The notes under the pieces are model-generated. The model was not told the DNA's origin and made no database searches. It saw nothing but the letters and a program-made list of their open reading frames with translations. From Candidatus Geothermocultor quzhuomuensis (GTDB taxonomy: Bacteria > Actinomycetota > Aquicultoria > Geothermocultorales > Geothermocultoraceae): a DNA stretch of 64,000 nt. Location: the NCBI GenBank assembly GCA_015711795.1, contig JACVJC010000003.1, positions 44,355 to 108,354 on the forward strand. Direction: 5' to 3'. Shown here piece after piece: positions 2,720-51,331 of this stretch (its first letter is position 1; the number at the start of each line of letters is the position of its first letter). The translations under genes were made by a program, and so were the position numbers.

Positions 2720-3469
2720 TTAATAGTGAGCTATTATGGTTTTACCTCCATAAACCTGGTCACCAAACTTTACTCTCAACTCAATATCCCTTTTAAAGAT
2801 AACCAAATCAACTTGGGAGCCCCTCTCAATGAAGGAAATCTTCTGCCCCAAACTTAACTCTTCTCCCTCTTTTACAAAGCAACTTATCTTATTAACAAAT
2901 TTATCAGCAATTTCAACTAAGGCAACTGATAAGTCATCCCCCTTTAATATAATTGTGTTTCTCTCATTAGCTAAGTGAAATTTTTTGTCAAATAAATCAA
3001 CAGCTTTTCTTAAAAAGGTAAATTTAAAATACTCCCAAAGGTCAACCATAGGAAAGTTAACTTTCGCTTGATAATAAAAGACTTTCTCAACTCTCCCTTT
3101 AATTGGAGCATAGTTAAAATGAACATCAAGGGGGGACATATAGATCCCAACGAGCCATCCATCCTTGTCTTCTAAAGTTATCTTGGAAAGCTCGCTAATT
3201 GCTATTTCTTCACCCAATTTTTTCGAAATGACTTTGCCTTCTTTAACTTGCCTGATGTAAATAACCTTGCCATCAGCTGGCGAGGCAATAACTCTCCCCT
3301 TTTCATCAGGGGTTCTAATTGGGTCACGATAAAACCAAACCTTTCTTAAATAAAAATAAATACCCCCTATTAAAAAAAGGGCAAGGAATAACATTAAAGC
3401 TAAACTCTTGGGGGAAACTATAGGAAACCAAAAGCTCTCGATAAATCTCTGGCTCTTAAAAATAACCAT
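2720..3469 (-). CDS. psd: phosphatidylserine decarboxylase-like proenzyme (short membrane-anchored form)
   Basis: N-terminal TM helix. YMSPLDVHFNYAP resembles the PSD LSPxDYHR motif, and ERGSQV resembles the autocatalytic G-S-(T) cleavage site near the C-terminus. Start is trimmed to an internal Met to limit overlap with the upstream gene. Confidence 0.5.
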   Translation of the reverse strand: MVIFKSQRFIESFWFPIVSPKSLALMLFLALFLIGGIYFYLRKVWFYRDPIRTPDEKGRVIASPADGKVIYIRQVKEGKVISKKLGEEIAISELSKITLEDKDGWLVGIYMSPLDVHFNYAPIKGRVEKVFYYQAKVNFPMVDLWEYFKFTFLRKAVDLFDKKFHLANERNTIILKGDDLSVALVEIADKFVNKISCFVKEGEELSLGQKISFIERGSQVDLVIFKRDIELRVKFGDQVYGGKTIIAHY

Positions 3470-5577: not shown

Positions 5578-5672
5578 ACGATATAAGAAGAGAGTTCTTT
5601 GAAGCTTAAGGAAATAGAAATAATTTTAAATTTCTTTTATCAAATTTCTCTTAATAAGTAAAGATATATTCT

Positions 5673-19429: not shown

Positions 19430-20368
19430 TTAAGCATGCTCTAGCCCTTTAAAAAGCCGACTTACTGATTCGTCTTTATGAATGTAAAAAATGGCTCGAC
19501 CAAAAAGAGAAGCCACTGAAAGAACTTTTATCTTTTCGCTTTCCTTCCCTTCATCAATAGGAATGGTATTGGTAACAACCACTTCTTTAATAAGAGAATT
19601 TTGAAGTCTTTTAAGTGCAGGGGGAGAAAAAATGGGATGAGTAGCGCAAACATAAACCTCCTTAGCCCCTTCCCTTAATAAAGCCTCAGCACCATTAACT
19701 ACTGTCCCACCAGTATCAATCATATCATCAATGATTAAAGTTATTTTCCCCCTAACTTCACCCACAACATGGGTTACTTCAGCAACATTATGTTTAGGGC
19801 GACTTTTATGCAAAATAGCCAAACCTGCTTCTAAAAAGTCAGCACATTTTTTAGCTATTTTGACCCGACCAACATCAGGTGAAACAACGACTAATTCTTT
19901 AAATTTTTTCCCTTTTATGTAATTAACTAATAAAGGAACAGCGGTCAAATGGTCAACTGGAATATTAAAAAATCCTTGAATCTGGCCGGCATGAAGATCC
20001 ATTGTAATTAAGCGATTAATACCAGCTGTAGCTAACAAATCAGCAATTAATTTAGCACTAATTGGTTCCCTTGACTTTGCTTTTTTATCTTGGCGAGAAT
20101 AACCAAAGTAAGGAATAACTGCTGTGATGCGCTCAGCTGAAGCCCTCTTAAGCGCATCAACCATAATTAACAACTCCATAATATTTTGATTGACAGGATT
20201 ACTGATAGTTTGAATAACAAAAACATCAGCACCTCGAACACTTTCTAAAAAGCGAACATAAATTTCACCATTATCAAAATAAGATATGCTTACCTTTCCC
20301 AGTTTTACCTTCAAATAAGAGGCAATTTCCTTGCCTAGCTTTGGATGGGAATTACCAGAAAAAATCAT
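19430..20368 (-). CDS. prs: ribose-phosphate pyrophosphokinase (PRPP synthetase)
   Basis: MIFSGNSHPKLGKEIA...PRPP-binding motifs. Start moved to the internal Met because the track ORF start overlaps the glmU 3' end. Confidence 0.9.
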   Translation of the reverse strand: MIFSGNSHPKLGKEIASYLKVKLGKVSISYFDNGEIYVRFLESVRGADVFVIQTISNPVNQNIMELLIMVDALKRASAERITAVIPYFGYSRQDKKAKSREPISAKLIADLLATAGINRLITMDLHAGQIQGFFNIPVDHLTAVPLLVNYIKGKKFKELVVVSPDVGRVKIAKKCADFLEAGLAILHKSRPKHNVAEVTHVVGEVRGKITLIIDDMIDTGGTVVNGAEALLREGAKEVYVCATHPIFSPPALKRLQNSLIKEVVVTNTIPIDEGKESEKIKVLSVASLFGRAIFYIHKDESVSRLFKGLEHA

Positions 20369-21812: not shown

Positions 21813-22067
21813 AAAAGTAACTTCTCACTTGTAACCTGTCCATGAAATCAAAAATTAAAAAGTCTTGAAGGATAAAGTTCTGAAAATAAAACTAATAAGC
21901 AGTTAATAGCAAATTTAGTTTTCAATCCTCAATCCTTCAATCCTTCCTACTTCAGCTCTTCAAGCTCTTAACTTTCAGTTCCCTGTTTCCAGCCATAAAC
22001 AAAGAGCCAAAGCCAAGAACTAGAGCCATTTTATCTAAAACCTTATCTTATCTCAATGCTTATTAGA

Positions 22068-44504: not shown

Positions 44505-44771
44505 TTACTTGACATATCGAGCATACTTAAGAAAGACCTCTAAAGCTAATTCTACCGCACTTTCGGTATCGAGTTCGTTTTCTTTCAGGCATTCTCGCAT
44601 TCTCTGGCTGATTATCTGAATTCCTACTTCATCAAGAGCACTTCTCACAGCAGCTAACTGAGTTAAAACCTCTTCACACGAGCGATTTTCCATAATCATA
44701 CTTTGGAGACCTTTAACTTGCCCCTCGATTCTTTTCAACCTATTTAAGATTTTTTTGTCTTGATTATCCAT
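44505..44771 (-). CDS. CsoR/RcnR/FrmR-family metal-sensing transcriptional repressor
   Basis: LNRLKRIEGQVKGLQSMIMENRSCEEVLTQLAAVRSAL is the DUF156/CsoR signature with the conserved Cys. Confidence 0.75.
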   Translation of the reverse strand: MDNQDKKILNRLKRIEGQVKGLQSMIMENRSCEEVLTQLAAVRSALDEVGIQIISQRMRECLKENELDTESAVELALEVFLKYARYVK

Positions 44772-44933
44772 AATACCCTCAAGGGTATTCTAAAAGAGCC
44801 CAATAATATCTGTCAAACTAATTCCAATAAGGAGAAGACTATATAAAGTTACTTATGATTGAAATAAAAATTGGTTTAAAAAAGTTTCTAACTTCAGTCC
44901 TTAGCTCAAGTTAATCTTGCCTCAAGTAGCTGC

Positions 44934-47298: not shown

Positions 47299-49686
47299 GT
47301 GAGAAAAATGGCTAAAATTTTTGGAAATTTTAAAATTCCGAAGGAGTTGCCCTTAATTCCTTTAAGAGATTTGGTTGTTTTTCCTAATTTGGTGGTCCCC
47401 CTTTTTGTTGGAAGACAAAGATCGATGAACGCTCTTGAAAAAGCAATGCAAAAAGACCACTTAGTTCTACTTGTTTCTCAAAAGAAAGCTGAAATTCAAG
47501 AACCTTCTCCTGAAGAACTTTATGAGATTGGTTGCGTCGCTACAATTATGCAAGAGTTAAAATTGCCAGACGGAACAGCTAAAGCACTAGTTGAAGGAAT
47601 AAGAAGGGTTAGAATTCTTGAGATTGTTCAGGAAGAACCTTACTTTAAAGCAAGGGTTGAAGAACTTCCAGAGATAGACCATAAGGATTTGGGAGCCGAA
47701 GCTCTAATGAGGAATGTCGTCAGTCAATTTGAAAAAGCAGCTCAATTGGGAAAACCAATTCCTCGAGAAGTGATTTTAGCTGCTTTAAACATTGAAAGCC
47801 CAGGCAGGCTAGCTGATTTTATCGCATTTCATCTTAGTTTAAAGACCGAAGAGAGACAAGAAATTCTTGAAGCGGTTGACTCTGTTAAAAGACTTGAAAA
47901 AGTTAACCTCCTTTTAAGTAAAGAATTAGAGATTCTTGAAATTGGAAGCAAGATTCAGTCAAGAGTTAGAGAACAAGTAAATAAAGCCCAAAAAGAATAT
48001 TTCTTAAAAGAGCAGTTAAAAGCAATTCAGAAAGAGCTGGGGGGGCTTGATGAACAGCAAGCTGAGATTGAAGAGCTAAAGGCAAAGATAAAAGAGGCAA
48101 AAATGCCACCTGATGTTGAGGAAAAAGCAATGAAGGAAGTGGAGCGGTTTTCGAAAATGCCACCTGGCTCGGCTGAACTTTCGGTTGTTCGCACTTACCT
48201 TGATTGGTTAATTTCTCTTCCCTGGGCGATTAAAACAACTAAAAAATTAAATTTAAAAGAAGCAGCTAAAATTTTAGATGAGGACCATTATGGTTTGGAG
48301 AAAGTGAAAGAGCGAGTAATTGAGTTTTTGGCTGTTCACAAGCTGACTAAAGGTAAAGCTAAAGGTTCCATCCTATGTTTTGTTGGACCTCCCGGAACCG
48401 GAAAGACATCGATTGGTAAATCAATTGCTCGAGCCCTAGGAAGAAAGTTTGCTCGAATTTCCCTAGGTGGAGTTAGAGATGAAGCCGAGATTAGAGGTCA
48501 TCGAAGAACTTATGTGGGAGCACTTCCGGGGAGAATAATCCAAACATTGGCTCATGTTAAGTCAAAAAATCCTGTTTTTATGCTCGACGAGGTAGACAAG
48601 ATAGGGGTTGACTTTAGAGGTGACCCTTCCTCAGCTTTGCTTGAAGTTCTTGACCCAGAACAAAATTATTCATTTTCTGACCATTATCTTGAGGTTCCCT
48701 TCGACCTTTCTGAAGTAATGTTTATTACCACAGCCAATATTCTCGATACTATTCCACCCGCCTTAAGAGATAGAATGGAGGTCATTCATTTCCCTGGATA
48801 TACTGAGGAAGAAAAATTAAAGATAGCTCAAAACTTTCTTATTCCGAAACAAGTTAAGGGTCACGGCTTAACCAAAAACAACTTAGAAATAAAAGAAGAT
48901 TCACTTCGAAAATTAATTAGAGAATACACGCGAGAAGCTGGTGTCCGAAATTTGGAGAGGGAAATATCCTCCATTTGCCGTCAAGTTGCCAGGAAAGTAG
49001 TTGAAGGACGCAAAAAGAAAATTAAAGTTAAATCAAATAATTTAGCTGATTTTCTTGGACCAACCCGATTTAGATATGGGATGGCTGAAGAGAAAGATGA
49101 AATTGGAACAGCCACTGGATTAGTCTGGACTGAAGTCGGAGGAGACATAATTTCAGTTGAAGCAACTTTAATGAAGGGGAAAGGAAACTTAATTTTAACT
49201 GGCTATTTGGGAGATGTCATGAAAGAATCAGCTCAAGCAGCAGTGAGCTATATTAGGTCGAGAGCGAGTGAGCTCGGAATTGATGAAGATTTTTATAAAA
49301 AATATGATATTCACATCCACGTTCCGGCTGGAGCAATTCCCAAAGATGGCCCTTCAGCTGGAATTACTATGGCAACTTCACTAGTTTCCGCTTTAACCAA
49401 GAGAAAAGTTAAGAAAGATATTGCCATGACGGGGGAAATAACTTTGCGTGGGCATGTTCTTCCAGTTGGAGGAATTAAAGAAAAAATTTTAGCTGCTCAT
49501 CGTGCTGGTATTAAACAAGTTATAATTCCAGAAGAAAATGAGAAAGACCTAATTCTTGTTCCCAAGCATGTTCAAAAAGAACTCAAATTTATTAAAGCTA
49601 AAAATGTTGATGAAGTTTTTAAAGCTGCTTTAGAGCCTAACCGAGGCAAAAAAGCTACTCATATCCGTGAGGTGGTTAAGGCTTGA
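47299..49686 (+). CDS. lon: ATP-dependent protease Lon
   Basis: LON N-domain, Walker [10 protein letters not shown], and the protease Ser-Lys dyad region ([17 protein letters not shown]). Confidence 0.95.
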
Positions 49687-50177
49687 AAATTGGGGTAATT
49701 TCCGATACCCACCTCAGAGAGTCAAATTCACCATCAGTTCAGCCTTTAAAAGAAATTCTTAAAAAACACTTCCATGGCGTTGATATGATTCTTCATGCTG
49801 GTGATGTTGGAGATTTAAAGTTTCTTAACTGGCTCAGCTCCATTGCTCCTACTTATGCTGTCTGGGGCAATATGGATTCGTTTGAAGTTAAGCAAGCTTT
49901 ACCTGATAAAAGGGTAATAGAATTAAAAGAGTTTAAAGTTGGTTTGACTCATGGTTGGGGTCCTCCTTGGGGTTTAGCTGAAAGAGTCAGGAGCAAATTT
50001 GATGAAAATATCAATTGTCTGGTCTTTGGCCATTCTCACCAGCCTTTTAATGAGTTTGAAAGGGGGGTTCTCTACTTTAATCCTGGTACTCCTACTGATA
50101 GGCAATTTGCAACAGTTAACACCATTGGTATTTTAACCGTTGAGGAAGGGATTAAGGGAGAAATTATTTACCTATAA
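49683..50177 (+). CDS. YfcE/Vps29-like metallophosphoesterase
   Basis: [11 protein letters not shown]...HAGD...GNMD...GHSH metallophosphatase motifs. 164 aa. Confidence 0.75.
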
Positions 50178-50441
50178 AAGTATAAAAGCAGTAGCGAGAA
50201 TATAGCCTGCCTGTTGCCTTCCTGTCGGCAGACAGGGCGGACAGGTAGCGAGTAGCGAGAGAAGAGTCCCCTTCCCTCTCCCCTGAGAGAGGGCTGAGGT
50301 GAGCAGATATAGAATTTCATACTTTTTCCTCTCCCTGTCTGCGGTAGGCAGGCTTCTGGGTACTTGACAAGGTGAAGCAAATATGAAATCTTGCACTCTT
50401 CCCCTTTTTAGGGGGAAGAACAAGATGGGGGTAAGTAACCC

Positions 50442-50473
50442 CCATTGTCACTTTCTCGAGAAAGTGACAATGG
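50442..50473. repeat. perfect 32-bp palindrome CCATTGTCACTTTCTC|GAGAAAGTGACAATGG. A related imperfect copy TCACTTTTGCGAGAAAGTGA lies at 50528-50547.
   Basis: Read directly. The reverse complement of the first 16 nt equals the last 16 nt exactly. Sits inside a locally GC-rich structured island in a 670-bp convergent intergenic region. Confidence 0.8.
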
Positions 50474-50848
50474 TTAGAAATTGGTTTGAGGTGTGTTATT
50501 GAAAAACCAAAGCTCAAACCTTCTTTTTCACTTTTGCGAGAAAGTGAGAAAGGGGAAAGTTGGTAATTTTCTGTTTTGGGACATTTTGGGACAAGATTTT
50601 GTGAAAAAAGTAAAAAATTTATTGACAAGGAAGAAAATTGGGGTCAAACCTCGCATCTAATCTGAACAACTCAAATGAAATCTTACTTTCAAATTCACTA
50701 GATTTCTCCCTCAAGGAAGAGGAAAGGTTAGGGGATTGGGTGATTGGAAAGTTAAAATATGAAGAAAAGAAAACAAAAGAGTGAATGTCTTTATTTTGCC
50801 TTGACCTGTTTTGCCTGGAGCTTGCTGGCTTGTAAGCTAATTTGTTGG

Positions 50849-51331
50849 TTAGTTTTCCTGGTCTAGGTAGACTTCCTCGGAGTCAGAGTTGTAGCCAATA
50901 AGCTCAGCGTATCTCCCCCAGTCAATGGTTGTATGGACCAACTCTTCAGCTTCTTCTTCAGGAAGATGGGTTGAGAAAATTTCAACAAAGTACTCTCTGT
51001 CCATTTGTTTATCCTTTTGAGACTTGAGGATGTTAATAATTTCCTTAAAAACTTTTAGCTTTTTAAGCTGCTTCTTAAACAACTTTTTTCTCTGGTTAAC
51101 ATCACTGGCTAAGAAATCTTGGCCAATTTTAGTTAATCTTATGTCACCAGTTGAAACTTCAGTTAGGTTAAGTATTTCAGAAGCGTCAACAATAGGCATA
51201 AAGTCTTCGAGGTCGTATTGGAGTTTCTGAGCTAAATTAGGGAGGTCTTCCTTCCCCTCAGCGTCTTCAAGGAACTCTAAAAGACCAATAATTTCACTTA
51301 CACTAGCCCGCGGTAGCGGTTCAACTTTCAT
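50849..51331 (-). CDS. stand-alone AAA-associated-domain protein (the type of domain usually fused to the C-terminus of NitT/TauT-family ABC ATPases)
   Basis: 160 aa, acidic. Family recalled from memory. Position immediately downstream of the ABC ATPase supports the assignment. Confidence 0.45.
   Translation of the reverse strand: MKVEPLPRASVSEIIGLLEFLEDAEGKEDLPNLAQKLQYDLEDFMPIVDASEILNLTEVSTGDIRLTKIGQDFLASDVNQRKKLFKKQLKKLKVFKEIINILKSQKDKQMDREYFVEIFSTHLPEEEAEELVHTTIDWGRYAELIGYNSDSEEVYLDQEN

Follow-up and report, generated by a model that had tools for sequence, protein, structure and literature searches.

Why should two operons that end facing each other be held apart by 671 bp of palindrome-rich DNA? 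The question is raised by a gap at positions 50178-50848 of the DNA analyzed here, a 64-kb stretch (64,000 nucleotides, hereafter the window) of contig JACVJC010000003.1 from Candidatus Geothermocultor quzhuomuensis. As delimited by open reading frames (ORFs) and Pfam, the gap runs from the stop codon of a metallophosphoesterase gene on the plus strand to that of an AAA_assoc_C gene on the minus strand. A first-pass annotation, made from the letters alone, had listed a series of inverted repeats in it and offered a structured small RNA (sRNA), an element like a miniature inverted-repeat transposable element (MITE) or a regulatory hub as candidates; the motifs that it listed are all present by sequence reading and repeat finder, with positions off by a few bases at most. 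We find that the DNA of the gap is absent from relatives, non-coding, built of palindromes and exceptionally strong in its folding on both strands, and that the unit of its GC-rich part belongs to a dispersed family. Our preferred reading, to which we give a probability of about 0.55, is that the gap is a composite of palindromic modules resembling repetitive extragenic palindromic (REP) elements, REP doublets forming hairpins (REPINs) or MITEs, and that its probable, incidental effect is that of a terminator acting in both directions or of a barrier at 3' ends.

The gap, its counterparts in relatives and its folding

The metallophosphoesterase is at most 56% identical to any other protein, and the organism has no close sequenced relative. 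For Lon, encoded just upstream, the closest relatives are 76-78% identical, and the homologues at 76% and below are labelled by their sources as Actinomycetota metagenome-assembled genomes (MAGs). Nine syntenic loci from relatives with Lon 76-78% identical made up the comparison set. As far as the contigs reach, the gene order CsoR – unknown – DUF6049 – Lon – AAA_assoc_C – ATP-binding cassette (ABC) ATPase – permease is kept in all nine, and the junctions, measured from the end of the Lon gene (in locus L040, from the end of the phosphoesterase gene) to the end of the AAA_assoc_C gene, are 8, 8, 8, 16, 20, 21, 21, 22 and 22 bp long, compared to 671 bp here. The alignments of the two flanking proteins with their L040 orthologues extend to the final residue. 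Since nine relatives have 8-22 bp and both flanking genes are intact, the comparison indicates that the 671 bp are extra DNA, gained by insertion in this lineage. Collinearity of the contig with the relatives to the left and right of the gap makes a misassembly unlikely. Striking and structured as it is, the gap would then be dispensable, because the relatives do without it. The metallophosphoesterase gene after lon is itself variable: present here and in L040, it is absent from L036, L038, L042, L044 and L045, where lon faces the AAA_assoc_C gene directly.

Pfam gave no match in any of the seven ORFs of the gap, for an 83-aa ORF over the GC-rich island, 5.8 billion proteins contain no homologue, and a full HMMER search with a 103-aa ORF over the hairpins returned none among 1.84 billion representatives. 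These searches rule out a protein-coding gene or a pseudogene and bear out the earlier suspicion that the minus-strand ORFs are artefacts. A TTGACA lies at 50622-50627 by sequence reading, and a promoter scan found no consensus site able to drive a transcript through the hairpin array. With neither a Pfam match in its ORFs nor a consensus promoter, the gap is, as had been proposed, without obvious coding or promoter role.

Compared to dinucleotide shuffles, the fold of the whole gap had z-scores of -4.8 on the plus strand and -8.0 on the minus strand, and that of its hairpin run (50385-50565) reached -6.3 and -8.7, respectively. When every 180-nt segment of the 64 kb was folded on both strands with a correction for GC content, 50191-50610 contained the seven best plus-strand segments and five of the top six on the minus strand. 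This is the strongest-folding stretch of the window on both strands, and the structure of the gap exceeds chance expectation. Strong folding on both strands is as expected of DNA palindromes.

Palindromic modules and the dispersed 20-nt unit

The gap is composed of two parts, a GC-rich island termed module A and a run of five abutting hairpins, H1-H5 (50388-50554), whose coordinates are collected in Table 1. The GC content of the window is 36.8%, that of module A peaks at 64%, and the only other stretches of at least 58% GC are three tRNA genes. Module A consists of two inverted copies of a 20-nt GC-rich palindromic unit, CCTGYCTG-N4-CAGRCAGG, around approximately 90 nt of unique sequence, with a perfect outer inverted repeat of 9 bp (AGCCTGCCT at 50204-50212, AGGCAGGCT at 50347-50355) and an inner one complementary at 10/10 positions (GCAGACAGGG at 50228-50237, CCCTGTCTGC at 50333-50342). 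In the left arm, whose tandem periods are 11 and 9 nt by tandem-repeat scan, the core CCTTCCTGTCGGCAGACAGG (50217-50236) equals the dispersed 20-mer at 19/20 positions, and 50217-50237 fits the dispersed 21-nt pattern with 1 mismatch, an event expected 0.00 times in shuffles. The right-arm loop is one base shorter than that of the common form of the 20-nt unit. A third copy of GTAGCGAGA is found at 50191-50199, near the GTAGCGA micro-tandem repeat.

In the hairpin run, the CTTCCCC-TTTTTA-GGGGGAAG hairpin of the first-pass annotation proved to be the inner part of the longer H1 stem. H3 is a perfect palindrome of 32 bp, of which about 1e-5 (64000 x 4^-16) would be expected in 64 kb, and H5, with its core TCACTTTTGCGAGAAAGTGA at 50528-50547, matches it as a direct repeat at 78% of 37 nt, 80 bp apart. 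The two constitute module B (50437-50555), a doublet of an approximately 37-nt palindrome around H4, with two more hairpins stacked upstream; taken as an inverted repeat, it has arms at 50440-50470 and 50525-50555 with 84% complementarity over 31 nt. On the plus strand, H4 is followed by TTCTTTTT. Small exact tandem duplications are spread through the gap (GCCTGCCTGTT x1.9, GGCAGACAG x2.1, GTAGCGA x2.1 and TTTTGGGACA x2).

Table 1. Features of the convergent gap and of the genes beside it (window coordinates; a point marks features assigned to no strand)
Feature	Position	Strand	Remarks
lon	47299-49686	+	upstream of metallophosphoesterase gene
Metallophosphoesterase gene	49683-50177	+	after lon, 4-nt overlap with lon stop
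Whole non-coding insertion	50178-50848	.	from ORFs, Pfam, relatives' junctions and flanking protein alignments
Module A, GC-rich island	50204-50355	.	from inverted repeats, 64% GC peak and folds
Module A left arm	50204-50245	+	expanded unit, both halves tandemly duplicated: GCCTGCCTGTT/GCCTTCCTGTC + GGCAGACAG/GGCGGACAG-G
GTAGCGA x2.1 micro-tandem repeat	50245-50259	+	adjoins left arm
Module A central hairpin	50275-50294	.	CCCTCTC-CCCTGA-GAGAGGG; from sequence reading and folds
Module A right arm	50334-50352	-	single inverted unit CCTGTCTGCGGTAGGCAGG; from repeat finder; 3 edits from family variants
Hairpin H1	50388-50426	.	ATCTTG…CTCTTCCCC-loop-GGGGGAAGA…CAAGAT; from fold
Hairpin H2	50427-50443	.	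GGGGG-TAAGTAA-CCCCC; terminator-like score on minus strand
Hairpin H3, module B unit 1	50442-50473	.	perfect 32-bp palindrome (16/16); from repeat finder
Hairpin H4, module B spacer	50483-50520	.	GGTTTGAG…CTCAAACC; from repeat finder and fold
Hairpin H5, module B unit 2	50517-50553	.	degenerate copy of unit 1; from repeat finder
TTTTGGGACA x2 exact tandem repeat	50574-50593	+	from repeat finder and tandem-repeat scan
Short hairpin	50819-50838	.	AGCTT-N10-AAGCT; 11-30 nt past AAA_assoc_C stop; terminator-like on plus strand
AAA_assoc_C gene	50849-51331	-	last gene of ABC-transporter operon, convergent with metallophosphoesterase gene

A gapped scan of metagenomes with the inner inverted repeat of module A returned 47 loci, mostly unrelated long hairpins; at 6 distinct loci among them, the match extends outward into the common sequence CCTGCCTGTCGGCAGACAGG(G). 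Perfect inverted pairs of the 21-mer around approximately 100 nt of unrelated sequence occur at L068 and L073. A viral match to the gapped arm pattern, L041, falls within coding sequence, has no other similarity and was set aside as chance. The exact 20-mer was present at 23 viral-contig loci, with up to four copies per locus, and a control hairpin with equal composition and geometry but scrambled sequence at 0. With the degenerate pattern, 85 unique sites were found in 69 viral-contig loci ranging from 33 to 70% GC, and 3 of the 32 possible variants account for 79 of these sites (CCTGCCTGCCGGCAGGCAGG, 39 sites; CCTGCCTGTCGGCAGACAGG, 26; CCTGCCTACCGGCAGGCAGG, 14). Variants CCTGCCTGTCGGCAGACAGG and CCTGCCTGCCGGCAGGCAGG differ at two positions that are nearly always changed together, which is what copying of the unit predicts and independent mutation does not. 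Placed at gene ends or between genes, beside genes of every kind, the units are grouped side by side in pairs, at spacings of 50-110 nt in doublets and, at L165, in a 21-nt tandem array. One copy, at 3257-3276 of L001, a locus retrieved for an unrelated reason, lies between genes with short oligomer repeats alongside. Altogether, these matches indicate that the 20-nt unit is a real dispersed family.

The neighbors of the unit have little in common: no Pfam family occurs more than 2 times among 55 flanking ORFs, and an association with GIY-YIG or other homing genes finds no support there. In records of cultured phages and plasmids, the unit gives chance-level partial matches only. The flanks of at least 30 units in other loci contain no constant tetranucleotide and thus no fixed GTAG or CGTC tag, and in the literature library searched by sequence string, six substrings taken from the unit and its variants occur in no paper.

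The 20-nt GC-rich hairpin, seen again in dozens of contigs from uncultured phages and bacteria that differ widely in base composition, is of wider interest, and its cross-lineage family is a more interesting by-product than the locus itself. A bolder reading, which we regard as rather doubtful, is that the hairpin is a new REP-like mobile unit that spreads from phylum to phylum and is exchanged between uncultured phages and hosts, that it travels as discrete sequence variants and builds doublets and tandem arrays, and that the GC island is one REPIN-like doublet of it in an otherwise repeat-free, AT-rich actinobacterial-like genome. Because REP families are normally lineage-specific, such a unit would require an unusually promiscuous mobilizing enzyme or a conserved host factor that selects the exact sequence. 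If mobile, it would offer a handle on the spread of short palindromic DNA between phages and hosts, and it would account for GC spikes, and for some spurious ORFs, in AT-rich MAGs.

Origin, likely effect and competing explanations

REP elements and REPINs are found in Escherichia coli and Pseudomonas and are mobilized by REP-associated tyrosine transposases (RAYTs, also called TnpA-REP); their families usually have many copies per genome and are specific to a species or genus. According to one report (PMC3733652), most REPs are situated after genes, where the adjoining ORFs converge or run in one direction, and inverted dimers are frequent; two reports (PMC3733652, PMC3337134) describe the units as short palindromes in extragenic DNA, often paired head to head and able to form a larger hairpin. 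The gap resembles these elements in its short (20-40 bp), imperfectly palindromic units, 20 nt in module A and 32-37 nt in module B, in its extragenic position between two converging stop codons and in its inverted doublets, with the arms of module A at 50204-50245 and 50333-50355 and those of module B as given above. It differs in several respects. REP units have an unpaired GTAG or CGTC tag at one end; here, GTAG is found at 50245 and within the right-arm loop without forming a fixed 5' tag. No RAYT gene is present among the 18 neighboring genes scanned, and contigs of 33-70% GC, phage contigs among them, share the module A unit base for base, whereas a REP family is usually restricted to one species or genus.

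Other systems provide partial parallels. Like Correia elements of Neisseria, ERIC/IRU, RUP and BOX, all MITEs, which can end up in 3' untranslated regions, module A is an intergenic, non-coding element of approximately 150 bp, bounded by inverted repeats and able to form a long stem-loop. The terminal inverted repeats of MITEs are present in module A (9-bp outer, 10-bp inner), not in the gap as a whole, and the interior of module A is unrelated to the interiors of other inverted pairs. Yeast mitochondrial GC clusters and Rickettsia palindromic elements are GC-rich hairpin units that cause local GC spikes in an AT-rich background, as module A does; neither has any sequence relationship with the 20-nt units, and Rickettsia palindromic elements are often inserted in frame within genes, whereas the 20-nt units lie at gene ends or between genes. 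Bidirectional intrinsic terminators share with the gap stable stem-loops between convergent operons, but the gap is far longer and more elaborate than such a role requires, most of its stems have no U-tract, and the relatives manage with 8-22 bp. What is unusual is the lineage; the locus itself, a convergent spacer filled with palindromic repeat DNA, is of an ordinary kind.

In the composite that we favor, the modules would have arrived by insertion of non-autonomous hairpin elements, which an enzyme encoded elsewhere would have copied via a single-stranded hairpin intermediate. They would then have grown by local slippage, to which the micro-duplications of 7, 9, 10 and 11 nt point. Because transcripts of both convergent operons would run into the stacked stem-loops, the likeliest present-day effect would be transcription termination and protection of 3' ends from exonucleases on both strands, incidental rather than a conserved function.

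Several results weigh against this composite. Neither module has a copy elsewhere in the window or in the relatives' loci, and the window has one locus of the module A unit, whereas REP families are usually multicopy. Unlike a MITE, the island has no second full-length copy, and neither it nor its right-arm variant was found anywhere else in the window, the relatives' loci, or the viral and metagenome contigs, where the 20-nt unit alone recurs; the central hairpin has no copy in the viral contigs, and the 24-base core of the 32-bp palindrome none in viral or metagenome contigs. An 18-base degenerate core of the palindrome gave 33 single matches in 185,579 genomes (596 Gb), compared to approximately 17 expected by our own arithmetic, and these appear to be close to chance, with no related locus among them. 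No direct repeat abuts 50204/50355 or 50178/50848, so that module A differs from MITEs also in having no target-site duplication; the best end-to-end local alignment of the gap, sought as terminal inverted repeats, does not exceed the best of 300 shuffles; and no transposase is encoded by the 18 neighbors scanned. In a terminator scan of the gap, only H2, on the minus strand, and the hairpin at 50819-50838 passed, and the terminator role is one that we infer. Because neither target-site duplication nor transposase is seen, module B is unique so far and no GTAG/CGTC tag is constant, we call the modules REP-like and not RAYT-mobilized REPs.

The earlier proposal of a MITE-like, dispersed repeat gains support: the gap is missing from nine relatives, and the arms of the island are a dispersed unit that does recur. 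Some of the results that the first-pass annotation had named as refuting were obtained, in that the structure is not conserved in relatives and the searches brought up no further copy of the 32-bp palindrome. The earlier interpretation is partly right: of its three candidates, the MITE-like element gains support, the regulatory hub does not, and the sRNA is a less likely candidate.

The sRNA explanation would place in the gap one or two independent structured sRNA genes that only this lineage has acquired or evolved, the island yielding a Y-shaped RNA of approximately 150 nt and H1-H5 a multi-hairpin RNA of approximately 170 nt. That the gap is the strongest folding outlier of the window and that the island shares its high GC content only with the three tRNAs speak for it, and the commonest asymmetric 20-mer variant, of which only one strand folds into a clean 8-bp stem that includes one G-U pair, hints at a role at the RNA level. 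The two strands of the gap fold about equally, however, as DNA palindromes do and a strand-specific RNA does not; there is no consensus promoter, all syntenic relatives are without the gap, and its sequence has no homologues to align for covariation. Rfam at gathering thresholds found only tRNAs in the whole window, and with lax filters and E-values up to 10 neither the gap region nor a 191-nt slice of the island had a believable match, the best (30.8 bits versus a threshold of 100) being to a plant microRNA hairpin model and meaningless.

It is improbable that a larger integrated element once stood here, lost its genes and left the gap as a decayed scar, be it of a replication or transfer origin, of an attachment site or of the end of an insertion sequence. 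The gap is indeed an insertion, the 20-mer unit is frequent in viral contigs, and single-strand origins, like the ends of elements, typically have contiguous hairpins and a perfect long palindrome. Nevertheless, neither the gap nor its surroundings contain an integrase, a transposase, a replication gene or a fragment of a gene, no tRNA lies at the junction, and similarity to phage or plasmid records is at chance level only. The gap also has no DnaA box: no TTATCCACA-like site was found in it, the total for the 64-kb window being below chance expectation, which likewise excludes a chromosomal replication origin. A CRISPR (clustered regularly interspaced short palindromic repeats) remnant is excluded by the presence of two copies only, at 78% identity, with a hairpin as spacer and no cas domains in the 18 neighboring genes.

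The regulatory hub of the first-pass annotation, with GGGGG-N7-CCCCC (H2) as a CsoR/RcnR-type operator and two TCAC-N12-GTGA palindromes for a dimeric regulator, is very improbable. Its palindromes are long and paired 80 bp apart, H2 shares the G-tract/C-tract dyad of CsoR/RcnR operators, and a csoR gene is located 6 kb away; the annotation had placed this gene at 44505, and csoR was indeed identified at 44505-44771 as PF02583. The gap, however, offers no promoter to control, and there is nothing to regulate because both neighboring operons end there; relatives that have no gap retain csoR. A better palindrome, AATACCCTCAAGGGTATT, a dyad of ATACCC…GGGTAT type, lies directly against the start codon of csoR at 44773-44790, with equivalent dyads beside the csoR start in L036 (about 5634-5650) and L040 (about 5588-5604), and it is probably the autoregulatory CsoR operator. 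CsoR/RcnR operators belong in the promoter of an operon under their regulator's control, usually the regulator's own, which is where this palindrome is found. H2 sits between two gene ends, has none of the ATAC/GTAT flanks of that palindrome and is not conserved with csoR, and the only other match to its pattern in the window is a tRNA T-arm. Annotation of the gap as an RNA gene or a metal-regulator site would be warranted only by transcript or binding data.

Least credible of all is a type I toxin-antitoxin-like locus in which a 35-aa hydrophobic ORF (50759-50866, plus strand) is translated from a long structured leader: the ORF, MKKRKQKSECLYFALTCFAWSLLACKLICWLVFLV, opens with MKKRKQKSE followed by 26 hydrophobic residues, has GGAAAG 7 nt before its ATG and lies downstream of extreme structure, but T-rich sequence yields hydrophobic residues by default, Pfam gives no family match, no promoter was found and the relatives lack it. 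Small-membrane-toxin-like in shape, this ORF overlaps the final 18 nt of the AAA_assoc_C gene on the opposite strand.

Similar hairpins and repeats at other loci

The longer matches to the 18-base core of module B are a 23S rRNA hairpin (L030), a hairpin at a gene end (L025) and a run of hairpins in an archaeal contig (L028), none of them a related locus. At L025 (4975-5015), in an unrelated genome of 52% GC, a hairpin between convergent genes is the reverse complement of module B unit 2 at 34/37 positions; as the rest of the locus is without similarity, we judged it convergent or a chance match rather than a true copy. At L028 (2868-3000), on a Methanomicrobiales contig that surfaced only via the 18-base core pattern, five or six hairpins of approximately 22 nt with TTCGC(G/A)AGAA centers, e.g., CTCACTTTCGCGAGAAAGTGAG, abut each other, resembling H3 and H5 in style and partly in sequence.

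In the tandem array at L165 (3916-4105), a 21-nt unit that includes CATGCCTACCGGCAGGCAGG is present ten times, head to tail. Other loci with the 20-nt unit are the viral contigs L093-L168 and loci L053, L056, L066, L068, L073 and L090. Oligomer repeats stand beside GC-rich units at L001 (CACGA-type, 3190-3345), L092 (GATTCAT and TGTTCTA, 1-240) and L073 (GTTGA(C/A)AA, 322-470); short, AT-richer repeats of this kind flank GC-rich units and some intergenic regions of the window, as a recurring style of intergenic filler.

The next folding outliers of the window after GC correction are both on the minus strand, at 21841-22020 (z = -4.0), in a 542-bp gap adjoining tRNA-Gln, and at 19711-19890 (z = -3.0), in a 1055-bp gap with no ORF of at least 80 aa; neither has an Rfam match at E <= 0.1. 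Downstream of tRNA-Gln, AGGATTGA is repeated three times at 21925-21955.

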